Assembly (NCBI GenBank): GCA_041389825.1
Contig: JAWKRC010000007.1
Location: 125,093 to 189,092, forward strand
Direction: 5' to 3'
DNA from: Polyangiales bacterium
Lineage (GTDB): Bacteria; Myxococcota_A; Polyangia; Polyangiales; Ga0077539
Length of the DNA: 64,000 nucleotides
Shown: one piece after another, positions 3,981 through 54,411 of the stretch
Position numbering within the stretch: the first letter of the stretch is position 1
Layout of the letters: each line of letters starts with the position of its first letter
The notes under the pieces: generated by a model
What the model saw: only the letters and a program-made list of their open reading frames with translations
The model's database searches: none
What the model was told of the DNA's origin: nothing
Made by a program: the position numbers and the translations under genes

Positions 3981-4904
3981 ATGCGCCCGACGGCCCTCGA
4001 CCGCGCCCTCCTCGCCCTCGACGGGCTCTCCCTCGGCGACGCCTTCGGGCAGCGGGTCTTCTCGGGCCCCGATCCGCACTCTCGCGTGATCGCGCGGAGG
4101 GTCCTCCCTCGGGCGCCGTGGAGACACAGCGACGACACGGCGATGGCGTCGGTGCTCGTCGAGCACTTGCACCTTCGAGGCGCGATCGACCGCGACGCGC
4201 TCGCGCTCGACTTCGCGCGGCGGTACAGCGCCGACCCCGCGCGGGGCTACGGCGCCGTCGCCCACTGGATCCTCACGCGCGTCGGCGCGGGCCACCCGTG
4301 GAGGGACACCGCGCGCACGCCCTTTCAAGGCACGGGCTCGATGGGCAACGGCGCGGCGATGCGGGTCGCCCCCGTCGCGGCGTGGTGGGTCGACGACCTC
4401 GACGAGGCCCTGCGTGGCGCCATCGCTTCGGCCGAGGTGACGCACGCGAACCCGCAGGGGATCGCGGGCGCGGTGGCGGTGGCCGCGGCGTGCGTGTTCG
4501 CGTGGCGCGCGCGGCGCGATCCGACGGCGGTGAAGGCGGCGGAGGTGCTGCGCTTCGTGGCGGAGCGGACCCCTGACGGCGCCGTGCGCGACGGCGTGCG
4601 CGAGGCAGCGCGGAGGGTCGACGCGACGCCGTACGACGCGGCGAAGGCGCTGGGCGACGGCCGGGAGGTGACCGCGCCCGACACGGTTCCCTACGCGCTG
4701 TGGTGCGCGGCGACCGCGCTCGGAGACTTCGAGGGCGCGCAGTGGCGCTGCGCCGAGGGGCTCACCACGCCGGGCGCCGACGTCGACACGGCCTGCGCCA
4801 TCGTCGGAGGCGTCGTCGCGCTCGCGGTGGGGCGCGAGGGGCTCCCGCCGTCGTGGTTGCAGGCGCGAGAGCCGCTGTCGGTGGCGCTCGACGACGCGGG
4901 GTAG
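3981..4904 (+). CDS. ADP-ribosylglycohydrolase family protein (DraG/ARH-like)
   Basis: 307 aa. Contains SDDT and GNGAAMR motifs typical of the ADP-ribosylglycohydrolase fold. Confidence 0.7.
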   Translation: MRPTALDRALLALDGLSLGDAFGQRVFSGPDPHSRVIARRVLPRAPWRHSDDTAMASVLVEHLHLRGAIDRDALALDFARRYSADPARGYGAVAHWILTRVGAGHPWRDTARTPFQGTGSMGNGAAMRVAPVAAWWVDDLDEALRGAIASAEVTHANPQGIAGAVAVAAACVFAWRARRDPTAVKAAEVLRFVAERTPDGAVRDGVREAARRVDATPYDAAKALGDGREVTAPDTVPYALWCAATALGDFEGAQWRCAEGLTTPGADVDTACAIVGGVVALAVGREGLPPSWLQAREPLSVALDDAG

Positions 4905-4912
4905 CCGCCGCG

Positions 4913-5848
4913 TCAGGGCGCGAGCCAGGCGGCGAGGGCCGAGGCGTCTCGCTCCATCACCGCGTCGCCGACGGCGTCGGCGCCATCACGCACCACGCGC
5001 TCACGCAGCTCGGAGGCCTCGCGCTCGGTCAACGCACGCCCGAGCCTCCGCTCGCACTGCCGCTTGAGGAGCGCGAGCTCTCCCTCGGCGCGTCCCTCGG
5101 CGCGTCCCTTCTCCACTCCCCTCGACTCGGCGAGCTGGAGCGCGCCGCGCGCGTCCTGCTCGGCGACCTTGGCGCGGTCGTAGGCCTCCCACTCGGCCGC
5201 GGTGAAGGCCGCCGCGCGCGAGGCCTCCAGCGCCTTTCGCGTGGCGACCTCGTGCAGGGTCGGCGGCACCGCGTCGAGCTTCGACCCGAGCCGAAAGACG
5301 TAGGCCCACTCCTCCACGGCGCTCGTCGGCGCGCGATTCAGCGGGTACTTCGGGAGCTCCACGAAGACGTACTGCACCTGCGAGAGGCCCAGCCGCCCGC
5401 CGTGCTGCTCCTGCATGCGCCAGTGGCTCACCAGCGGCACCGGGGCTGAGCCCGGCGCGTCAGGCCACAGCTCGAAATCGCAGATCGACACGGCGATCAC
5501 GTCGTTGAGTTTGGGGTAGTCCTCGCCCCCCGCGAGCTGGCCGACGTAGGCCTTCGAGGCGTTATAGACCACGCGCTTCTCGAAGCCCGCGACGTTCAGC
5601 ACCTGCATCTCGACCACGAAGACCACGCCTCGCGCGTCGCGGCACTTCACGTCGACCACCGAGAACTTCAGCGCGTCGACCCGCGGCCGCTCCTCCTCGC
5701 GCAGGAAGGTCACCTCCGCGATCGCCCGCTCGCCCGAGAGGTTCAGGAGCGCGTTGAGCAGCGCGATGAGGATGTCTTTGTGCTCCTCGGCGCCGAACAC
5801 CTTCTTGAAGACGAAGTCGGTCTTGAGGTCCGCGAAGACGGCGCGCAT
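4913..5848 (-). CDS. Rpn family recombination-promoting nuclease / putative transposase (PD-(D/E)XK, transposase_31-like)
   Basis: Start taken at internal ATG (MRAVFADLKTDFVFKKVFG...), the canonical Rpn/YhgA N-terminus. Conserved ...VVDVKCRDARGVVFVVEMQV... nuclease core. The ORF as called (4913..5932) has a 28-aa extension. Confidence 0.7.
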   Translation of the reverse strand: MRAVFADLKTDFVFKKVFGAEEHKDILIALLNALLNLSGERAIAEVTFLREEERPRVDALKFSVVDVKCRDARGVVFVVEMQVLNVAGFEKRVVYNASKAYVGQLAGGEDYPKLNDVIAVSICDFELWPDAPGSAPVPLVSHWRMQEQHGGRLGLSQVQYVFVELPKYPLNRAPTSAVEEWAYVFRLGSKLDAVPPTLHEVATRKALEASRAAAFTAAEWEAYDRAKVAEQDARGALQLAESRGVEKGRAEGRAEGELALLKRQCERRLGRALTEREASELRERVVRDGADAVGDAVMERDASALAAWLAP

Positions 5849-5920
5849 GGCGGCCGCAGGGTAGCGTGACGACGGGAGCGGGGCAGCGCCCCCGGGCAGG
5901 GGCGCACCCTCCCACGGGTA

Positions 5921-6030
5921 GGGGTGTTTCATCCCTGCTCAGGCGAATTCCATCGGTGCCGCTGGGATGAAACATCCCTGCCCAGGGGAGTTCCATCCCT
6001 GCCCTTGGGATGAAACGTCACGGGGTCGGT
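5921..6030. repeat. cluster of three imperfect ~43-bp palindromic repeat units (ttccatcc-N9-gggatgaaac / gtttcatccc) between the Rpn gene and a divergent hypothetical gene
   Basis: Read directly: gtttcatccctgc at 5926-5938; unit b 5946-5987 (ttccatcggtgccgctgggatgaaacatccctgcccaggg); unit c 5988-6030 (ttccatccctgcccttgggatgaaacgtcac...). Each unit carries an internal 8-bp inverted repeat with a 9-nt spacer. Confidence 0.55.
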
Positions 6031-6130
6031 CGATTCCGCGGACGTCGCCGCCCTCTCGTTCTGAGTACCTGTGAGCAACACGAGGCGCACCGACGGTCGG
6101 CGCGTCCGCTGGGGCTCGGAGGATTCCATC

Positions 6131-6730
6131 ATGAGCCGCAAGCCCGCCTGTTCCGTCTCCGTCACCGCCCCCGCGCCCGCCGAGGCCGACCCCTTCGACG
6201 CCATCGAGCGACACGTCGACGCCGTCGATCAGGCCACCACGGGCCTCCAGCCCCTCGCCGCCGAGAAGCGCGCCACCACCGCGCGCGGCGTCGGCACCCT
6301 CGTCGAGCCCGCCCGCGCGCTGTGCGCCGTGCTCACCACCGCCCCGAGCGACCCGGCGAAGGTCCCGCGTCACAAGCGCCTCGTCGGGGCCTTCGATGTC
6401 ATCGCCGCGCACGACGGCGGAGACGACCCTGAGCGCTTCGAGCCCGAGGCCATCTCCGCGAAGCTCGACCGCGCCGCACGCGCGACGGCGCTCGCCGATC
6501 GCCTCGACGGCCTGGCGCGCAGGCTCCGCGACGACGCGCTCCGCACCACCGAGTCGGTCTCGCGACCGATCACCATGGCGCTCGACCTCGCCCGCACCCT
6601 CGCCCGCGGAGACTTCGCCGACGAGCTCGTCCCCGTCACCGACGCCCTCGCGGCCCTCACGGCGAAAGCCCGACGCGCGCCGAAGGCCGAGCCCGCGACG
6701 GAGCCCGAGGCCGACGCCGACGCGGAGTGA
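6131..6730 (+). CDS. hypothetical protein
   Basis: 199 aa from internal ATG (MSRKPACSVSV...) with a GAUUCC-like spacer upstream and a strong GC3 bias. No recognisable domain; Ala/Asp/Arg-rich and probably helical. Confidence 0.45.
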   Translation: MSRKPACSVSVTAPAPAEADPFDAIERHVDAVDQATTGLQPLAAEKRATTARGVGTLVEPARALCAVLTTAPSDPAKVPRHKRLVGAFDVIAAHDGGDDPERFEPEAISAKLDRAARATALADRLDGLARRLRDDALRTTESVSRPITMALDLARTLARGDFADELVPVTDALAALTAKARRAPKAEPATEPEADADAE

Positions 6731-6733
6731 ATC

Positions 6734-7663
6734 TCAGCCCTTCCCTGCGTCGCCCGCCATCACCGCGCGCGCGTGGCAGCCCTTCAGCCACGCGCCGCGG
6801 TCGGGCGCGGTCACGAAGGCCTTCAACTCCTCCGGCCCGAGCAGCAGCACGAGCGTCTGACCGTTCCGTCGCGACCAGCGTTCGATCTGCACGGTCTTGG
6901 CGAAGCCCCCGGTCGCGACGAACAGACCGAGCTGACATCGGCTATAGCGCCGTTCGAGCTTCGCCCAGAAGAGCGTGAGCTCGTCGACCCCCACCGGCTT
7001 CGACCAGTTCTTGCACTCCACCAGGATGTACTGGCTCTCGCGCTCCCAGAACGGGTCGCGGGCGTTGTTCTGGACGAGCACGTCGACCTCTTCGAGCTCG
7101 TTCTGCACGTTGCTCCGCACCGACTCGAAGCCCGGCATCGAGCGGAACAGGAGCACGAGGAGCTGCTCCAACAACCGCCCCTTCTTCTGCGGGTCCACCT
7201 CGGTCTGCGTGTCGGCCCAGGTCTGTCGAATGCTCGCCTCCAGCGCGTCGCGGTCGAGACGCGCGAGGGTCCGCTCGCGGTAGAGCTCCATCGCGTTGCG
7301 CACCTTGACCTTGAGGAACACCTCGAAGTGTTCGTCCTTCTTCAGGTAGTCGTAGGCGCCGCTGCGGAAGGCCCTCGCGATCGACTCCGCCGACGCGTAG
7401 CCCGTCGCGAGGATCACCTTCGCGTCAGGCGCGACGCTCGCGAACTGGCCGATCAGGTCAAGGCCCACGTCTGGCCCCGCGGGGCCGTTCAACCGTTGGT
7501 CGAGGAGGATCACGGCGCACCCGCGCTTCGAGAGCCGTTGCAGGGCCTCGTCGCGGCTGCGGGCGGTCTCGACGACGTAGCCCTCGTCGCCCAGAAAATC
7601 TCGGTACGTGTCGACGAAGGTCTGCTCGTCATCGACGACGAGCACCCATCCCTGCGTGGTCAT
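6734..7663 (-). CDS. response regulator with N-terminal REC domain fused to a C-terminal Mrr-like (Mrr_cat, PD-(D/E)XK) restriction-endonuclease domain
   Basis: 309 aa. REC features: VLVVDDEQ, LLDQRL (Asp acceptor) and ...DYLKK. C-terminal ...LLEQLLVLLFRSMPGFESV...EEVDVLVQN...ILVECKNW...FVATGGFAKT matches the Mrr catalytic-domain pattern (D...E.K). Translationally coupled (ATGA) to the upstream kinase. Confidence 0.75.
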   Translation of the reverse strand: MTTQGWVLVVDDEQTFVDTYRDFLGDEGYVVETARSRDEALQRLSKRGCAVILLDQRLNGPAGPDVGLDLIGQFASVAPDAKVILATGYASAESIARAFRSGAYDYLKKDEHFEVFLKVKVRNAMELYRERTLARLDRDALEASIRQTWADTQTEVDPQKKGRLLEQLLVLLFRSMPGFESVRSNVQNELEEVDVLVQNNARDPFWERESQYILVECKNWSKPVGVDELTLFWAKLERRYSRCQLGLFVATGGFAKTVQIERWSRRNGQTLVLLLGPEELKAFVTAPDRGAWLKGCHARAVMAGDAGKG

Positions 7664-8877
7664 CGCGCGCTCCTCGACTCCAACGGTACGACCAGCACGA
7701 AGCGCGCGCCGCCGAGGTCTCCCGCCTCGCAGCGGGCCTCGCCGTTCATCTCAGCGACGATGACTTCGCGCACGAGCGCGAGCCCGATGCCGTTGCCACC
7801 AGGGCGTCGGCTGAAGCCGCGCTCGAACACGAGGAGTCGGTCCTCGTCGGCGACACCGGGCCCGTCGTCGTCCACCTGAACGACGACTCGTTCGCCGCTC
7901 GCGTTCACAGTCGCAACGACCTGCACTCGCGCGATCGGTCGCTCGCTCACCTGCGCCGCGTTGCGCAACACGTTCACCAACGCGAGCACGAAACGGGAGC
8001 GGTCGCCCGACACGCGCAGACCTTCCGCCACGCTGACCGCGGCGTCGACCTGGTGGTCGCTCCGTACCGCGGCGACCGCCTCGTGGATCACCGCCGCGAG
8101 CTCGAAGACCGTGGGGAGCGCGCTCGCGAGGTTCGCGGCCTGCTCCAGCTCTCCGAGGAAGGAGAACATTCGCGACATGCCCTGCTCGACGCGCTGACGG
8201 TGTTGCGAGGCGTCGCCGTTCCCCGCTCCGGGCGGCCACGCGCGCATCAGCGCGTTGAAGCTCGCGCGCATCGGCACGAGGGCGTTGCGGAACTCGTGGA
8301 CGACCAGCCGCGTGTGCCGCTCGATCTGCGCGACGGCACCCTCGCGCTGAACGCGCTCCAGCGAAGGGAGCGCGAGGGTGATGCTCGCGGAGCGCTCCTC
8401 CTCCAAGAGGGCCGAGGCGAGCGACGAGAGCGGCGTGTCACGGCCCGCGGCGACGCCGCGGAGGAACGCGAGGGAGGGTTCGGGGACGGTCACGTAGGTG
8501 AGGGGCTCATGCGCGTGTGGGGTGATCTCAACAAGCCCCAGCGCGTCGAGGCGCATGACCCACGCCCACCCGCCGGGTGGCGCCTCTGCATCGTCTGGGT
8601 CATTCCAGAATTCGTGTGGAGGGCTCGCGCATAGCCAGTCGAGTAGCGGCCGACTGGTTCGCCATGGATCGTGGTCGCCCGCGGACTGCGCGGCCTCGAG
8701 CAACACGCAAAAGCGCCCTGCGTCCTGAGAAGGGAGTGAGAGGAAGGCATCACCAAGGCGCGTTCGCGCGCCCCCGCGACGAACGAGGCGAAGCTCGAAC
8801 GCGTACTCGACGGTGATCTCCTCCTCCACCGACGCGGGGTCCGTCAGGTACGCCCGCAGCTCCTCGACCAGCTTCAC
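7660..8877 (-). CDS. sensor histidine kinase (cytoplasmic; unknown N-terminal sensing domain + HisKA + HATPase_c)
   Basis: 405 aa. H-box RLVVHEFRNAL and a C-terminal ATP-binding region (VLRNAAQ...DDGPGV...GNGIGLALVRE). No predicted TM segment. The N-terminal ~170 aa has no assignable family. Confidence 0.75.
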   Translation of the reverse strand: MKLVEELRAYLTDPASVEEEITVEYAFELRLVRRGGARTRLGDAFLSLPSQDAGRFCVLLEAAQSAGDHDPWRTSRPLLDWLCASPPHEFWNDPDDAEAPPGGWAWVMRLDALGLVEITPHAHEPLTYVTVPEPSLAFLRGVAAGRDTPLSSLASALLEEERSASITLALPSLERVQREGAVAQIERHTRLVVHEFRNALVPMRASFNALMRAWPPGAGNGDASQHRQRVEQGMSRMFSFLGELEQAANLASALPTVFELAAVIHEAVAAVRSDHQVDAAVSVAEGLRVSGDRSRFVLALVNVLRNAAQVSERPIARVQVVATVNASGERVVVQVDDDGPGVADEDRLLVFERGFSRRPGGNGIGLALVREVIVAEMNGEARCEAGDLGGARFVLVVPLESRSAR

Positions 8878-8888
8878 GGTCTATCCCC

Positions 8889-10619
8889 TCACCCCACCGA
8901 CGCGCTCTTCTCCGCTCTCCCCACGCGCGGGCCCCACACGCTCACGGTCACGCTCCCCTTGCCCTGCACCACCCACTCGACGACGCGCGTCCCGGTGTTG
9001 CCGCGGCTCCGCAGGTAGAAGAGCGATCCTCCGTACAAGCCCCTCCCCCACCCGTCGAGGTGACCGATCACCCTCCGCGGCTCGGTCGGCGCGATCACCG
9101 TACAACCCTCCGCGCGAAGCTCGGCCACCAGGGGCTCGTTCCACGGGAGCTCCTTCGCCGACGCGATCCCGCACGACGGGAGGTAGCCGTGGTTCTGCAC
9201 CGTCGCCGTGACGTGCCACACGCCCTCGCTCACCGCGGTCACCGTGAGCTTGTCGACCTTCACCTCGGGCGCGAGCGAGGCCACGCGCATGAAGGCCGAC
9301 GACTGGTCCGCGCACACGCCGCCCAACAGGTCGTTCGGCGGGTTCCACACGCCCACCCGCGGGTCGAGGCCGCCCACCTCGACCCAGCCGAGCTGCGGGT
9401 GGTTGAAGGGCTTCCACGGGCGGACGATGCGCGAGGCGTTGTGGGCCTCGTCCCACCGCGCGAGGGCGATGAGGTCGTCGCGGGTGAGCTGGCTGTAGTG
9501 GTCGACGAAGGGCTTTCGCTTCGGGAGACCCAGTTGCTTGAACAGGTCCCAGAGCTCGCACACGTACGCGAGCGCGCCGCGCTGGTGGTACCCGAAATCC
9601 GTGAGGTCGCCGTGCAGCGGCTTGTCGGGCTCGTAGAGGAAATCCTCGAAGCCCGACACCGTGGGGTAGCCCGTACACTGCTCGTTCCACTGCGCGATCT
9701 GGCGCCAGATCGCGAGGTCGTCGGGGTTCATCTTCGCGTCGGGCTGGTGCCCCAGCGGACGGATGAACACACCCCCGAAGGTGTGCAGGTTCAGCCACGC
9801 GAAGACCTCGGGGTGGCGCACCATGAACTCCACCACGGCCCGCGCCTCGGGCTCGCTCGTCGGGTACGGCCCCGCGCCCGCCTGCTCGGGCTCGGGCCTC
9901 CAGCTCCAGGGGAAGTTCCGGTTGAGGTCGGTGTCGTTGTCCGAGAGGTAGGTCGGCGTCGGCACGTGGTCGCCGTCGAAGCCGTCGATCACGCCCTCGG
10001 GGTAGACCTTGTAGTACGGCCCCGGGTCATCGATGCGCCGCGGCACGAGCAAGCCAGGGAACTCCGTCGCCGCGACGAACTCGCCGCCCGGGTCCTCGAC
10101 GCGCATCACCATCGCGCGGCCGTCGCCGTCGACGTCGCAGCCGCGCCACCGCGCAGACCGCTTCGCGACGTGCTCCCTCGGGTTGGAGCGCACGTAGCGG
10201 CCGTCGGTGAGCACCGCCTCGGCGCCGTCGGGCGCCATGCGCGGGAGCACGTAGAACCTCACCTCGCGGAGCCTCGCCGCGGCCACGGCGCTCATCCCGC
10301 GCGGGGTTGATTCCGGGTCGAGGTGCAGGCGCAGCGCGTCTTCGGCGATGGCGAGCGCGACGCTGGAGCCCGCGAGCTCCGACGCGTGCATGTTGCCGTC
10401 GACCCACACCGAGGGCCGGGCGCGGTCGGGCTCGGGGCCGATGGTCAGGAGCCACAGGTCCCTCCCCTCGGGGCTCTTCGCGATGGACTCGCGACGCACG
10501 AGCGAGGGGAAGGCCTCGCACCACCCGAGCGTCTGCGCGTCGAGGTCGGCGTGCCGGAGGTAGCGGGTGCGAAAGCCCTTGTGGAGCCCGTCGAGCCGGG
10601 CGAGGTCCTCTGCGCTCAC
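8889..10619 (-). CDS. M14 family zinc carboxypeptidase
   Basis: 576 aa. Zn-binding HxxE ([11 protein letters not shown]), TDLNRNF, and later His ligand/catalytic region are typical of M14 peptidases. Confidence 0.75.
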
Positions 10620-10638: not shown

Positions 10639-11937
10639 TCAGAACCACGCCGTCACGCCCAGGAGGAAGGTGTCCTGGTTGCGCGCCGTGGGGAGGCTCA
10701 ATCCCGTCATCGGGTCGGTGGGCACCGCGCCCTGGTAGAACACCTCGCCGTCGGCCTCGTCGTGGCGGTACTCCGCGCGGATCGAGAGGTGCTCCGCCGG
10801 TCGCACGTCGAGGGTCGCCGTGCCCGAGGCCACCAGCGCCGCGCCGCCCATGTCGGTGAAGACCGCCTCGGCGCCCGAGGGGCGCCACTCCTGGAGCACG
10901 TCTGCGCGGAGCGCGACGCGGAGCCACGGCGCGAGCCTGAAGCGCGCGAAGAGCGCGCCGCCGAGCCAGCCCTGCAGTCCGAAGCGGTTGGGCTCGAGCC
11001 CCGCGAAGAGGTTGGCCTGAAGGGCCACGTGACGGTTCACCGTCCACCGGCCGTAGGCGTCGAGCACGTGGCGGAAGTAGTTGCCCTCGGGCGAGCCCTC
11101 GTCGCGCTCGACGCCGGCCCAGTACTGCACCGTGAAGAAATGGTCCTCGGTGGGGTGCTCCCACGACAGGTCGACGAGGAAGCTCTTGCCCGCCGAGCTG
11201 TCGCTCACGATCTGGTCCCAGCCGTTGTAGACGCCCGCGTGCATCGTGAGCGTGGGCGAGAGGCCGATCCCCGCGCGCGCGCCGGCGATCTGAAAGGGCG
11301 ACACCGCGAAGAGGTTCGAGGTGGTCCAGTTCCAGCGCTCCCACACGCCCATGTCTTCGACGGTGAAGGGCGCGACGAACAAGCCCGCCTCGACGGAGAG
11401 CCCCTCCCGATCTCCCCTCGCGAGGAGGCCCGTGTCCCAGCGGAGCGTGACCTCCTGGAGGAGCCTCCAGAGCAGGTCGAGGTCCGCGCCGCGCGGCGGG
11501 TCGCCGAAGCTCTCGGTGAACACCCCCGTCTGGAGCGTGAGGTGCCCGCGCACGGGGCCGTGACGGAACGCCGCCCCGAGCACGACGTTCTGCAGCGACA
11601 GCAGGTCGTGGCGGTCGTCGTAGAAGCGCAGCGCCGTGACCCCGTTCGAGGGCGCGTTGAAGTTGTACGAGTAGAAGGCCTCGACGTAGCCGCAGAGCCG
11701 CACGCCCTCGGTGAAGTTCTCCGCGTCGTCGGAGCACGCCGAGGCGTCTTCCCACCGCCGCGACTCCCGCTCCTCGGGGGTGTCTTCGCGCGTCGTCGTC
11801 GTCGCGTCGCTCACGGCGGGCTGCGTCGCCTCGGCCGGTCGCGTCGCCGCCGTCTCAGCGCCCCTCTCCTGCGCGCGCGCCGCGCCCCCCATGCACAGCG
11901 CGCACAGACCCGTGACCACCGCCGCCCTTCGCCGCAT
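10639..11937 (-). CDS. outer-membrane beta-barrel (porin-like) protein with signal peptide
   Basis: 432 aa from internal ATG ([23 protein letters not shown]). Alternating amphipathic beta-strand pattern, aromatic-rich, ends ...LGVTAWF as expected for a barrel C-terminus. The longer ORF to 12213 is an upstream extension. Confidence 0.55.
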
Positions 11938-11971
11938 CGGCGGGCGATGATGCACGGGGGCCGCACCCGCT

Positions 11972-13366
11972 GTGAACCGCGTCGTGAGAGACTCCGCGGC
12001 GATGGAGCCGACGACCTCCCGACACGCCCCGTCGCCGCCCGCGCACCCCGTGCTGGGGCACCTGCTCCCCATGCGCAGCGAGCCGCTGACGTGGATCCCG
12101 AAGGTCGCGCGGGAGCACGGCGACGTCGTGCGGCTGAGCTTCCCTCGGCGCGAGGGGGTGCTGATCAACCACCCCGAGGGCGTGCGGCAGGTGATGCAGG
12201 AGAACCACCGCAACTACGACAAATCCACCCCGGGCTTCGAGGAGCTGCGCAAGCTCCTGGGCAACGGGCTCCTCACCTCCGAGGGTGACTTCTGGCTCCG
12301 CCAGCGGCGCATCGCGCAGCCCGCGTTCAGCCGGCAGCGCCTCGCGGGCTTCGCGCCCGCCATGGTCCGCGCGGCGGAGGACCTCCGCGAGCGCTGGGTC
12401 TCCGTCGCGCCCTCGCGGCCGACGGTCGACGTCGCCGACGCGATGATGGCCCTCACGCTCCGCATCGCGGGCGAGACGCTGCTCTCGACGGACCCCTCGG
12501 CGAGCGCGTCGCGCGTGGGCTCGGCCCTCGCTGAGATCCTGCATCAAGTGCGGGGCCGCATCGCGACGCCGTTCCAGTTCCTCGCGCGGCTGCCCACGGC
12601 GAGGAACAAGCGCTACGCCGAGGCGCAGGCGACCCTCGACCGCGTGGTGCGCGAGATCATCGAGGCCCGCCGCCGCGGAGAGACCCGCGCCGCGTCGCCC
12701 GACCTCCTCGCGATGCTGATGGAGGCCCGCGACGAAGACGGCAAGGGCATGAGCGACGAGCAGCTCCGCGACGAGGTGCTGACCATCTTCCTCGCGGGCC
12801 ACGAGACCACGGCCAACGCGCTCGCGTGGACCTTCCACCTCCTCTCGCTGCACCCCGGCGCGCGGCGCGCGCTCCACGACGAGCTCGACGCCGCGGTGGG
12901 CGACCGCGCGCCGACCCTCGACGACCTGCCGCAGATGCCCTACGCGCGGCGGGTGCTGCAGGAGTCGATGCGCCTGCGGCCCCCCGTGTGGTTCATCGCG
13001 CGGCGCGCCGTCGGCGACGACACGGTGATGGGGCACCGCGTGAAGGCCGGCTCGATGGTGTTCATCTCCCCTTGGGCATTGCACCGGCACCCGGCGTACT
13101 GGCCCGACCCCGACGGCTTCGACCCCGACCGCTTCCTGCCCGACGCCGTCGCGGCGCGGCCCTCGTCGGCGTACATCCCCTTCGGCGCGGGCCCGCGCAT
13201 CTGCATCGGTCAGGGCTTCGCGATGATGGAGGCCCAGCTCATCCTCGCCTCGCTCTGCCGCTCGGTGTCGCTCGAGAACCTCTCGGGCGCGCGCGTCGAG
13301 CCCGAGCCCACGGTCACGCTCCGGCCCCGCGGCGGGCTCCCCATGACCCTCCACCCGAGGCGGTGA
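11972..13366 (+). CDS. cytochrome P450
   Basis: 464 aa (alternative start at 12002, MEPTTS...). Haem-binding loop FGAGPRICIG, I-helix AGHETT, ExxR (ESMRLR). Confidence 0.8.
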   Translation: MNRVVRDSAAMEPTTSRHAPSPPAHPVLGHLLPMRSEPLTWIPKVAREHGDVVRLSFPRREGVLINHPEGVRQVMQENHRNYDKSTPGFEELRKLLGNGLLTSEGDFWLRQRRIAQPAFSRQRLAGFAPAMVRAAEDLRERWVSVAPSRPTVDVADAMMALTLRIAGETLLSTDPSASASRVGSALAEILHQVRGRIATPFQFLARLPTARNKRYAEAQATLDRVVREIIEARRRGETRAASPDLLAMLMEARDEDGKGMSDEQLRDEVLTIFLAGHETTANALAWTFHLLSLHPGARRALHDELDAAVGDRAPTLDDLPQMPYARRVLQESMRLRPPVWFIARRAVGDDTVMGHRVKAGSMVFISPWALHRHPAYWPDPDGFDPDRFLPDAVAARPSSAYIPFGAGPRICIGQGFAMMEAQLILASLCRSVSLENLSGARVEPEPTVTLRPRGGLPMTLHPRR

Positions 13367-13373
13367 CGCAGCC

Positions 13374-14912
13374 ATGGCCCGCTTCGCTCCCCTCTGCCTC
13401 GCCCTCTGCCTCGCCGCGCCGCTCGCGCGCGCGCAGGTGCGACAGCCTGACGGCACCACCATCCCCGTGGGGATGAGCCTCCAGGGCTACCTCGACCGAC
13501 GGATGGAGACGGGGCTCCAGGTCGTGCGCGACGCGGCGATCACCCCCGAGCGCTTCGTGCCGGGGTGCTCGATCCGCTTCACGGTGGTGGCGCGCGACTC
13601 GGGCTACGAGAACACCTTCGGCTGGTACAACGTCACGCCGGGCCGCGCGCCGACCGAGAGCGAGCTCTACGAGCTCGTCGGGACGACGGCGGGCGAGGGC
13701 TTCACCGCGTCGCTGTCGTTCTTGAGCGAGCCCAGGTGGACCGGCGGAGAGATCGGGTTCTTCCTCCGTACGCCGCCGGGCTACGTCTACTACTCCGAGC
13801 GCGCGTACCAGCCCGACCGCGAGGTCTCGATGGGCTTCGTGCACCTGCTCATCTACGACTCGCGCGCCACCGCCAACGCCTTCTATTTCGCGTGGGAAGA
13901 CCTCTTCAACGGCGGCGACAACGACTTTCAAGACCTCTTGATGATCGTCGACAATCTCGTGTGCGCGGGCGGCGGAGACGCCTGCGACACGGGGATGCCC
14001 GGCGCCTGCGCCCGCGGGATGCGCCAGTGCCGCAACGGCGCGCTCGCGTGCCTTCCCACCACGCAGCCGAGCGACGAGGTCTGCGACGGCATCGACAACG
14101 ACTGCGACGGGATGACCGACGAGGGCGTGACCTCGTGCGGCGCGCGGATGGTGTGCGACCGCGGCGTGTGCGTCGAGGAGTGCTCGCAGGAGCTCGGCTG
14201 CGCGTCGGGCTCGGTGTGCAGCCCGCGCGGGACGTGCGTGAGCGACGCGTGCGCGAGCGTGGAGTGCCCCGAGGGGCAGGTGTGCCGCGACGGCGCGTGC
14301 CGCTCTCCGTGCGAGGGCGTGACGTGCCCGCGGGGCCAGGTGTGCCGCGTGGGGCGGTGCGTCGACCCCTGCGCGGGGCTCACCTGCGACGGCGACCAGG
14401 TGTGCGTCGAGGGCGTGTGCCAGACGCGCTGCCCCTGCCGTCGCTGCGGCGCGGGAGAGAGCTGCTTCACCGACGGGCGGTGCCGTCCCACGTCGTGCGC
14501 GACGGTCACCTGCGGAGAGGGCTTCGCCTGCGTCGACGGGCGCTGCGTCGACACCTGCGAGGGCGCGGTGTGCCCCGGAGGCGGGGCCTGCGTGCGCGGC
14601 CGCTGCGGCGACCCGGTGGTCGACGCGGGGGCGCCCCGCGACGCGAGCGTGCCCCCGAGGGACGTCCCCTCGCTCACGGATGTCGGTGCGCCCACGGTGA
14701 TCGACGCGGGCGCGAGGGACTCGGGCCTGCGCGACGCCGCGCGGGTCTTCGACGTGAACCTGTCGCTCGAGCCCGAGCCCGGCGCGAACTGCGTGTGCGA
14801 CGCGCCGGGGGCCTCAGGGCGCGACCGGGGCGGCCCATGGTCGACCCTCGCGGCGCTCGCTCCGCTCGGGGCGATCTTCGTGTCGCGACGTCGACGTCGG
14901 GCGAGGCGCTAG
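13374..14912 (+). CDS. secreted DUF4114-domain protein with Cys-rich C(x)nC repeats and a MYXO-CTERM sorting tail
   Basis: 512 aa with a signal peptide. DUF4114-like region (FFLRTPPGYVYYSERAYQPD...DNDFQDLLM), then more than 12 short Cys-rich modules (CxxGxCVxxC...). C-terminus ...CVCDAPGASGRDRGGPWSTLAALAPLGAIFVSRRRRRARR fits the MYXO-CTERM pattern. Confidence 0.7.
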   Translation: MARFAPLCLALCLAAPLARAQVRQPDGTTIPVGMSLQGYLDRRMETGLQVVRDAAITPERFVPGCSIRFTVVARDSGYENTFGWYNVTPGRAPTESELYELVGTTAGEGFTASLSFLSEPRWTGGEIGFFLRTPPGYVYYSERAYQPDREVSMGFVHLLIYDSRATANAFYFAWEDLFNGGDNDFQDLLMIVDNLVCAGGGDACDTGMPGACARGMRQCRNGALACLPTTQPSDEVCDGIDNDCDGMTDEGVTSCGARMVCDRGVCVEECSQELGCASGSVCSPRGTCVSDACASVECPEGQVCRDGACRSPCEGVTCPRGQVCRVGRCVDPCAGLTCDGDQVCVEGVCQTRCPCRRCGAGESCFTDGRCRPTSCATVTCGEGFACVDGRCVDTCEGAVCPGGGACVRGRCGDPVVDAGAPRDASVPPRDVPSLTDVGAPTVIDAGARDSGLRDAARVFDVNLSLEPEPGANCVCDAPGASGRDRGGPWSTLAALAPLGAIFVSRRRRRARR

Positions 14913-53022: not shown

Positions 53023-54411
53023 GTGACCACCGCTGAGACCACCGTGATGGTCGTCGAGGACGACCGCTCGAACCTCGAGTCGCTCGAGCGCCTGCTCTCG
53101 CGCGAGGGCTACCGCGTGGTGACGGCGCCCGACGCGCGCACCGCGCTCGACCTCCTTCGGCGGCAGCGCGTGCCCGTGGTGGTCACCGACCTGATGATGC
53201 CGGGCCTGTCGGGCCTCGACCTCCTCAAGGCCATCAAGGCCGTGGCGGCCGAGACCGAGGTGATCCTGATGACGGCCTACGGCACCGTCGAGACGGCGGT
53301 CGAGGCCATGCGCGGCGGGGCCTATGACTTCGTCGAGAAGCCCCTCAAGCGCGTGCAGATCGTGAAGAGCGTCGCGAAGGCCGTCGAGCGCGCGTCGCTC
53401 GTGGCCGAGAACCGCACGCTGCGCGAGGCGCTGTCTCACCTGCGAAAGCGGGAGATCATCGGGAGCTCGCCCGCCCTCCGTCAGGTGCTCGAGGTGGCCG
53501 CGCAGGCCGCGCCCTCGATGGCCACTGTGCTGATCCTCGGCGAGTCGGGCACCGGCAAGGAGCTCCTCGCGCGCTACGTGCACTCGCGCTCGCAGCGGGG
53601 GTCGGGGCCCTTCATCGGGGTGAACTGCGCGGCGATCCCCGAGACCATCCTCGAGGCGGAGCTCTTCGGCTACGAGAAGGGCGCGTTCACTGGGGCCGTG
53701 CAGCGCCGCGAGGGGCGCTTCGCGCAGGCCAAGGGCGGCACGCTCTTCCTCGACGAGATCGGCGAGCTCAGCCCCGCGGTTCAGGTGAAGCTCCTGCGCG
53801 TGTTGCAGGAGGGGGAGTTCGAGCCCATCGGCGGCCGCACCCAGCGCGCCGACGTGCGGGTGGTGGCCGCGACCAACCGCGACCTGCAGTCCGAGGTGAG
53901 CGCGGGGCGCTTTCGCGAGGACCTCTTCTACCGCCTCAACGTCATCGCCATCACCGCCCCGCCGCTGCGCGCGCGGCCCGGCGACGTGCCGCTGCTGGTG
54001 GAGCACTTCCTCCAGGTCTTCGGCGAGCGCAACGGCAAGGGGCCCTTCACGGTCACGCCCGCCGCGATGGAGAAGCTCTCGGCGTGGACGTGGCCGGGCA
54101 ACGTGCGGGAGCTGGAGAACACCATCGAGCGCGCGGTGGTGCTCTCGCGGAGCACCACGCTCGACCTCGGGGATTTGCCCAAGCCCATCGTCGAGACCGA
54201 GCAGCCGCGGGCCGAGCTGGTCATCGCCGTGGGCACGCCGCTCGAAGAGATCGAGCGCATGGTGATCCGCGAGACGCTCCGCGCGACGGGCGGCGACAAG
54301 CGGCTCACCGCGCAGCTCCTCGGGATCGCGACGCGCACGATCTATCGCCGCCTCGCCGAGGAGCGCGACGGCGCCGTGAAGGACGGCGACGACCCCGACC
54401 TCGACGACTGA
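53023..54411 (+). CDS. sigma-54-dependent response regulator (NtrC/PilR-type: REC + AAA+ sigma-54 activator + Fis-type HTH)
   Basis: 462 aa. VMVVEDD, acceptor region [18 protein letters not shown] Walker A, GAFTGA sigma-54 contact motif, and a C-terminal HTH ([18 protein letters not shown]). Confidence 0.85.

Follow-up and report, generated by a model that had tools for sequence, protein, structure and literature searches.

A conserved kinase-regulator gene pair of Myxococcota with a predicted Mrr-like nuclease as its output domain

A 64,000-nucleotide stretch of the Polyangiales bacterium contig JAWKRC010000007.1 (positions 125,093 to 189,092; the whole of this stretch is referred to here as the window) has a G+C content of about 74% and carries on its minus strand two overlapping genes that encode a histidine kinase and a response regulator whose output domain is a predicted nuclease. 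The kinase gene (7660-8877) starts with GTG and encodes a cytoplasmic protein of 405 aa; the regulator gene (6734-7663) encodes a protein of 309 aa in which Pfam matches, homologues and an AlphaFold2 model identify a receiver (REC) domain, a helical linker and an Mrr-like PD-(D/E)XK nuclease domain. The two frames share the tetranucleotide ATGA at 7660-7663, which combines the TGA stop of the kinase gene with the ATG start of the regulator gene. Direct reading of the sequence also finds a Shine-Dalgarno-like GGGGA motif (8884-8888, minus strand) 6 nt 5' of the kinase GTG, which itself lies 11 nt past the stop codon of an upstream M14 peptidase gene. The exact regulator protein is on record from a Polyangiales metagenome-assembled genome (MAG) under the sole annotation of 'response regulator' (P0001), and the NCBI annotation of the kinase comprises only 277 aa (P0121).

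Both Pfam matches of the regulator exceed their gathering scores. The first (PF00072, Response_reg; residues 7-115, E 6.3e-18, 65.4 bits against a cut-off of 30.2) marks the receiver domain (residues 1-125; 7289-7663), whose closest solved relatives are receivers of the NtrC1/NtrX type. The phospho-acceptor set of D11, D12, D55 (codon 7499-7501), T87 and K109 is present in the window protein and invariant in an alignment of 25 sequences. A larger alignment of 75 REC-nuclease homologues has D11, D55 and K109 in every sequence, and conservation there is at least 90% for D12 and T87. The AlphaFold2 model is confident (pLDDT 91.7, pTM 0.86) and has two domains; in it the long alpha5 helix of the receiver (113-134) is followed by helices at 138-154 and 158-174, the latter bearing E166. 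Model and alignment together delimit a conserved helical linker (residues 126-158; 7190-7288) made up of the end of alpha5 and helix 138-154, in which R129, E142, W149 and D157 are at least 90% conserved among the 75 sequences, with L117, K120 and R122 listed as further highly conserved positions of the linker region. A search at E<1e-5 returned 211 homologues of the regulator, nearly all of 300-320 aa and with the same combination of REC and Mrr_cat domains.

The second match (PF04471, Mrr_cat; residues 163-262, E 1.6e-9, 38.3 bits against a cut-off of 21) lies within the nuclease domain (residues 159-309; 6737-7189). The modelled core, with helix 158-174, strands 182-187, 192-198 and 212-218, helix 226-237 and strand 243-250, fits the alpha-beta-beta-beta-alpha-beta arrangement of PD-(D/E)XK enzymes. 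The alignments place the predicted catalytic residues, which fall between 7010 and 7168, at E166 (7166-7168), D194 (7082-7084), E216 (7016-7018) and K218 (7010-7012); all are invariant in the alignment of 25 sequences and, together with C217 and W220, in that of 75. A profile search of PDB sequences found no sequence-level relative of the nuclease domain, and its fold matches in BFVD are weak ones, to phage proteins annotated as 'restriction endonuclease' and 'type IV Mrr domain'. Pfam detects no helix-turn-helix (HTH), Mrr_N or other DNA-binding domain in the regulator.

The kinase, probably of class I (HisKA type), has a conventional catalytic half and an unusual N-terminus. Its catalytic ATP-binding (CA) domain (7663-8112) is defined by an HATPase_c match (Pfam, residues 291-400, E 9e-18) and contains N, G1 and G2 boxes at N306, D337xGxG and G361xGxGL. 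The dimerisation and phosphotransfer (DHp) helices (8113-8367) were placed by alignment and motif reading, and correspond to long helices at 294-371 in the AlphaFold2 model of the related kinase P0122; their H-box, recognized as the sequence motif HEFRN, supplies H194 (codon 8296-8298), and H194, E195 and R197 are invariant and N198 nearly invariant in the kinase alignment. No transmembrane segment is present, the maximal hydrophobicity over 19 residues being 1.58 and thus below transmembrane-like values. The N-terminus has no match in Pfam, NCBIfam or PADLOC, and a profile built from 12 sensor sequences has none in PDB sequences or Pfam; relaxing Pfam to E<=10 on the 12 sequences yields scattered single matches only, and the sensor profile retrieves solely kinases of this family. 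The preliminary description of this DNA, made from its sequence alone, had proposed a receiver fused to an Mrr_cat/PD-(D/E)XK core and joined through ATGA to a kinase lacking transmembrane segments, with a sensor of about 170 aa belonging to no recognizable family, and each of these proposals is borne out here; the Mrr_cat match and the catalytic residues, whose absence it had named as grounds for giving up the nuclease assignment, are both present.

Comparison with its relatives indicates that the kinase encoded in the window is a short-sensor variant that lacks an N-terminal helical bundle. True orthologues are mostly of 510-545 aa, and the closest, P0122 and P0123, are 62-63% identical outside the missing part. 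The window kinase keeps the first helix of the family (KLVEELRAYLxDP) and then jumps to approximately residue 128 of these two proteins: by alignment and blastp its residues 3-403 correspond to P0122 128-524, and residues 1-26 align also with P0122 4-33. The missing segment, about 110 residues that we call sensor A, is a helical bundle at 30-137 in the P0122 model, where it is followed by helix/hairpin and winged-helix-like modules (145-265) and then by the DHp and CA domains. What remains in the window (residues 1-170; 8368-8877) is thus the first helix and a winged-helix-like sensor B. Other short kinases include a 415 aa protein encoded beside P0078, P0134 (421 aa, on 27 contigs) and P0130 (406 aa), and this recurrence suggests a natural variant class. 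Across cognate pairs the sensor is the most variable part of the module, with a mean pairwise identity of 0.30 for sensor A and 0.40 for sensor B, as compared with 0.43 for DHp, 0.52 for CA, 0.55 for REC, 0.53 for the linker and 0.56 for the nuclease.

Comparison of genomes shows that kinase and regulator form a conserved two-gene cassette. A genome scan gave 44 loci, of which 40 have full-length regulator homologues, and these are almost all from Myxococcota (Polyangium, Sorangium, Chondromyces, Kofleriaceae, Archangium, Corallococcus, Pyxidicoccus, Hyalangium and Cystobacter). A kinase of the window type lies immediately upstream of the regulator in 37 of these full-length loci, so that the recurrent kinase neighbourhood for which the preliminary description had suggested a survey is indeed found; the tblastn alignments begin at approximately residue 25, and the sensor is therefore included in this conservation. 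The exceptions include a locus that starts at a contig edge (L032) and one in an Archangium MAG (L019), where a DDE_Tnp_1 transposase (6754-7740 of that locus, E 1.6e-11) occupies the kinase position and an intact regulator gene is left orphaned. The 4-nt overlap is kept in all eight annotated contigs that have a cognate kinase, the kinase gene ending 3 nt past the regulator start. All-against-all clustering of flanking open reading frames (ORFs) found no third conserved gene, shared flanks occurring only between closely related Polyangium genomes, and comparison of flanks across the 40 loci likewise found no methyltransferase or other conserved partner. Some genomes have two or three copies of the cassette, and a neighbour-joining tree resolves several paralogous lineages within both Cystobacterineae and Sorangiineae, patchily distributed among species. 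Two further loci (L043 and L044) were set aside, as they match through the receiver domain only, and L043 is an ordinary OmpR-type regulator.

The nuclease domain has a wider distribution than the cassette. With residues 140-309 alone as the query, a cut-off of E<=1e-3 gives 1468 cluster representatives and one of E<=1e-10 gives 643. In all of them the domain is at the C-terminus of its host protein, whose length is about 140-950 aa. A receiver is carried by 66 of the top 150 representatives, and the remaining N-termini are varied and mostly unrecognizable, although a scan of 71 proteins of non-REC length found HEAT, NACHT, nSTAND3, TPR, AP2, C5 DNA methylase and deaminase domains among them. 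Mrr_cat matches 59 of these 71, the E...ExD...ExK positions are invariant across all of them, and in 17 domain-only sequences the catalytic positions are invariant save for the first Glu, several of the sequences beginning after that residue. Two acidobacterial loci (L041 and L042) encode an NTPase, HEAT repeats and a nuclease of the window type in one protein and look like NLR-type conflict systems. That of L041 (a Blastocatellia MAG, region 4782-10256) is a 1235 aa protein with HEAT repeats, Pfam matches to NACHT (2.7e-9) and Mrr_cat (1.4e-7) and a nuclease 38% identical to that in the window, and downstream of it lie one ORF that looks MerR-like by eye and one that is TIR_2/ThsB-like; that of L042 (19-2265) is a similar protein cut by the contig end, with a nuclease 34% identical and an architecture read by eye, for which Pfam reports no family at E<=0.001. 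Given its varied N-terminal partners and invariant catalytic positions, we regard the domain as a predicted portable effector that is deployed by differing sensor and switch modules, and published conflict systems show the same pattern for Mrr-like restriction endonuclease domains (PMC11564622; PMC7159879). Separately, the best fold match of the modelled regulator among viral proteins in BFVD is a 298 aa 'response regulator protein' of phage-metagenome origin (Myoviridae sp. ctrnx29, A0A8S5LY51), aligned over its full length (E 7e-9, 21% identity) and possibly a receiver fusion of comparable layout that is carried by a phage.

On balance we think it probable that the pair is a self-contained two-component module with a nucleic-acid-cutting enzyme as its output, most likely one that acts on DNA, and with a conflict effector as its likeliest role. 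The proposed sequence of events is that an intracellular cue would act on the kinase sensor, whereupon the kinase would autophosphorylate on H194 and pass the phosphate to D55. Phosphorylation would change the alpha4-beta5-alpha5 face of the receiver, and the change would be relayed through the helical linker to the nuclease, with a shift in the oligomeric state or geometry of the regulator making the nuclease cores active, probably as a dimer. The ATGA coupling would ensure that kinase and nuclease are co-expressed. The H-E-x-x-N motif predicts phosphatase activity in HisKA kinases, and in the absence of the cue such an activity may act as a fail-safe that holds a potentially toxic nuclease off. 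The relay from receiver to nuclease is proposed on the model of NtrC1/DctD-type receivers and of the dimerization mechanism put forward for Type 1F Shedu (Gu et al., PMC10441436). The conflict or 'danger' role is the least certain step in this scheme; restriction of phage or other foreign DNA, or abortive infection and programmed self-destruction, would be its most likely forms, and we favour such a role because NLR-like proteins with NACHT and HEAT domains end in an effector of this nuclease clade. A more elaborate version, which we offer tentatively, is that of a Myxococcota-specific cytoplasmic danger-sensing pathway, in which a rapidly diverging orphan sensor would detect an intracellular cue, for example a component of a phage or a death signal of development, and a His-Asp phosphorelay would fire the nuclease on invading DNA or on the DNA of the cell itself.

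In favour of this reading as a whole are the conserved kinase gene with its 4-nt overlap, the modular, C-terminal nature of the nuclease clade, the patchy distribution of the cassette, the several paralogues per genome, the copy disrupted by an insertion sequence (IS), the variability of the sensor, the analogous published prediction for Type 1F Shedu and the presence of Septu, type I restriction and TIR neighbours at some loci. Clear defence neighbours were seen in about four of 26 contexts, a proportion that, with no background rate to set it against, indicates neither enrichment nor depletion. One of these is a complete Septu pair (PtuA 2e-49, PtuB 1e-46) at 11835-14080 of the Pyxidicoccus fallax locus L047 (the same locus as L014), 1-3 kb downstream of the cassette, with a pseudouridine synthase gene in between. 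Locus L051 has a type I HsdR nearby (E 1e-262), and at L049 (1833-13379) MerR, MerT and MerB genes for mercury resistance lie upstream and genes for a 446 aa TIR and a 752 aa WD40 protein downstream. The fourth is P0327 on a JGI contig, a distant REC-nuclease protein without a kinase of the family, which is preceded by genes for an nSTAND1-kinase-FGE-sulfatase protein, a TIR_2 protein and a DUF4058 protein and followed by two GAF-domain histidine kinases and a REC-PglZ protein. An AbiEii near P0323 and a PIN toxin-antitoxin pair at L050 are weaker defence-like cases. A gene filter requiring a G+C content at third codon positions (GC3) above 0.80 proved to be biased, missing the Septu pair of L014/L047, and six-frame ORFs were used in its place; PADLOC matches among these to generic domains (IscS-like SspA/DndA, MotB-like ZorB and NtrC-like RtcR) were rejected as evidence of defence, as were matches of the filtered genes to Ser/Thr kinases (PD-T4-6, PglW and others), which are generic kinase-domain matches. 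Myxobacteria are rich in Ser/Thr kinases.

Several observations weigh on the other side. PADLOC run on the six-frame ORFs of 16 loci finds no real defence system within 4.5 kb, and on four myxobacterial contigs the neighbours are mostly housekeeping genes, the Septu pair of Pyxidicoccus excepted; the TIR, nSTAND1, type I HsdR and AbiEii neighbours, the clearest of the defence-like ones, come from metagenomic contigs without a taxonomic assignment and for the most part accompany the most distant members. The flanks in the window itself are ordinary (ArsR, AHSA1, YceI, ADP-ribosylglycohydrolase, an Rpn-family PDDEXK_2 protein, M14 peptidase, porin and P450). No full-length copy was found on plasmids. 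The family tree broadly follows taxonomy, which resembles the pattern of a signalling module specific to one lineage more than that of a rapidly moving defence gene. Moreover, nuclease activity, substrate and phosphorylation dependence are all inferred, and phosphorylation might either activate or inhibit the nuclease. The cassette is not convincingly located in defence islands, and the linkage to such islands for which the preliminary description had advised a survey is seen at a minority of loci. The abortive-infection or restriction role that it suggested is plausible in view of the NACHT and HEAT proteins that end in the same nuclease clade, but defence islands are not the usual setting of the cassette, which behaves as an old Myxococcota family with several paralogues.

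The alternative that we take most seriously, while considering it somewhat unlikely, keeps a phosphorylation-gated nuclease but makes it a lineage-specific physiological regulator of DNA processing, with no part in immunity or suicide; signal-controlled degradation or turnover of DNA in starvation-induced development or autolysis, and stress-induced recombination or repair, would be examples. The near restriction to Myxococcota and the broadly taxonomic tree fit such a role, as do the housekeeping neighbours, the lack of a plasmid copy and the fairly good conservation of the regulator (45-58% identity). It accounts less readily for the occurrence of the same nuclease clade at the end of NACHT/HEAT and other conflict-type architectures, or for patchy presence, several paralogues and one IS-disrupted copy, and in the clustering of flanks no genes for development or repair are consistently associated with the cassette. 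A different kind of doubt concerns the window copy alone, which could be decaying or deregulated, with the loss of sensor A leaving the kinase blind or locked so that the locus may not signal normally. The deletion of about 110 aa relative to P0122/P0123 is suggestive in this respect, as are the short NCBI call of 277 aa and the GC3 of the kinase gene (0.85, and 0.81 in its sensor), which is under that of the regulator gene (0.92) and of the neighbouring genes (0.93-0.96). Against this, the frame is intact, the kinase retains the N-terminal helix of the family and every one of its boxes, its ATGA coupling to the regulator persists, and short-sensor kinases exist elsewhere (beside P0078, P0134 and P0130), and we think decay unlikely.

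Two further alternatives concern the nuclease domain itself. The protein could be a modification-dependent (type IV) restriction enzyme comparable to E. coli Mrr but under REC control, which cuts only foreign modified DNA and whose activity phosphorylation merely tunes; Mrr_cat is indeed the best family match, proteins named 'type IV Mrr domain' are among the fold matches in BFVD, and a type IV enzyme would be expected to have no conserved adjacent cognate methyltransferase, as is the case here. We nevertheless judge this distinctly improbable, in that the receiver stands where Mrr has its N-terminal DNA-recognition domain, no solved structure is related at the sequence level, and the sequence gives no sign that DNA modifications are recognized. 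Catalytically inactive, DNA-binding PD-(D/E)XK domains occur in other proteins, and this domain might likewise serve purely in DNA binding, making the protein a non-cleaving transcription factor or a DNA-anchoring regulator. Such inactive domains have been noted among the N-terminal domains of Shedu proteins (PMC10441436). The invariance of all four catalytic residues in 75 family members and in unrelated architectures points instead to selection for catalysis, Pfam finds neither an HTH nor any other DNA-binding domain, and we regard a purely DNA-binding function as very improbable indeed.

The idea of a nuclease gated by phosphorylation has a precedent. Type 1F Shedu combines a SduA/DUF4263 nuclease bearing an N-terminal receiver with an adjacent histidine kinase, is predicted to be activated by phosphorylation, and was reported in 39 instances (Gu et al., PMC10441436). 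The window pair shares with it the logic of receiver, PD-(D/E)XK nuclease and neighbouring kinase, but its nuclease is of the Mrr_cat type and not DUF4263, its kinase belongs to a dedicated family with its own orphan sensor, and its distribution is essentially confined to Myxococcota. The PADLOC SduA model PDLC00405 matches residues 7-122 only, which is the receiver part, and Pfam at E<=0.1 finds no DUF4263 match in the regulator, from which we conclude that it is not a Shedu protein. The resemblance to E. coli Mrr and other Mrr_cat (PF04471) type IV enzymes lies in the best HMM match, the intact D...ExK core and the lack of a companion methyltransferase. Sequence similarity to them is remote, however, and a receiver and linker take the place of the winged-helix Mrr_N domain; lacking Mrr_N, the regulator does not have the architecture of an Mrr-type type IV enzyme. 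Avs and NLR-like STAND proteins (Avs2, PMC11564622; NACHT systems, Kaur et al., PMC7159879) similarly use an Mrr-like restriction endonuclease as a triggered effector, at the N-terminus in Avs2 and at the C-terminus in the window protein and its NACHT + HEAT relatives. Their trigger is the oligomerization of a STAND NTPase, whereas that of the window system would be a two-component phosphorelay, and the regulator is not an NLR. Regulators of the NtrC1/NtrX/DctD type, finally, offer the closest solved receivers and an extended alpha5 that couples receiver to output through dimer geometry, although their output is an AAA+ sigma-54 activator with an HTH domain and not a nuclease.

A paper describing the REC-Mrr_cat family with its dedicated kinase was not found in the searchable literature, the classic response-regulator censuses being outside its reach. 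The statement in the preliminary description that no characterized example was known accordingly holds for experimental work within that literature, but the concept itself is anticipated by the predicted Type 1F Shedu, and the family described here would be a further, uncharacterized version of a phosphorylation-gated nuclease. Response regulators nearly always end in DNA-binding, c-di-GMP or protein-interaction outputs, and a nuclease output would extend two-component signalling to the direct and irreversible destruction of nucleic acids. Receiver-gated nucleases have so far been predictions only, as in Type 1F Shedu, and a cassette of two genes with hundreds of members and a complete, conserved phospho-acceptor site makes a tractable test case. 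The ligand of the orphan cytoplasmic sensor could reveal an internal danger signal or a developmental signal of myxobacteria, and a nuclease clade shared with NLR-like proteins would here be tied to a wholly different trigger mechanism. Should the danger-sensing version be correct, this would be the first demonstrated two-component system that cuts DNA directly, and it might serve a multicellular bacterium as a switch for programmed cell death.

The other genes near the cassette in the window are excluded from the system since they are not conserved beside it: tblastn shows that neither the M14 peptidase, the Rpn/PDDEXK_2 protein, the 219 aa ORF described below nor the ADP-ribosylglycohydrolase recurs at other loci, and no flanking repeats or tRNA gene bound the cassette. 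The ADP-ribosylglycohydrolase gene (3981-4904, plus strand) and the gene for the Rpn-family recombination-promoting nuclease/putative transposase (4913-5932, minus strand) lie back to back beside it. At and just upstream of the start of the latter gene (5909-6006) is a 43-nt imperfect tandem duplication (5921-5963 and 5964-6006, 74%) that overlaps a 30-nt inverted repeat (5909-5938 and 5961-5990, 83%). The 219 aa ORF (6071-6730, plus strand) has a coding-like GC3 of 0.93 and converges on the regulator stop codon with a gap of 3 nt; it has no match in Pfam, NCBIfam or PADLOC and is absent beside the cassette in other genomes. A second receiver-domain match in the window (53029-53340, plus strand) is unrelated, with 34% identity to the REC part only.

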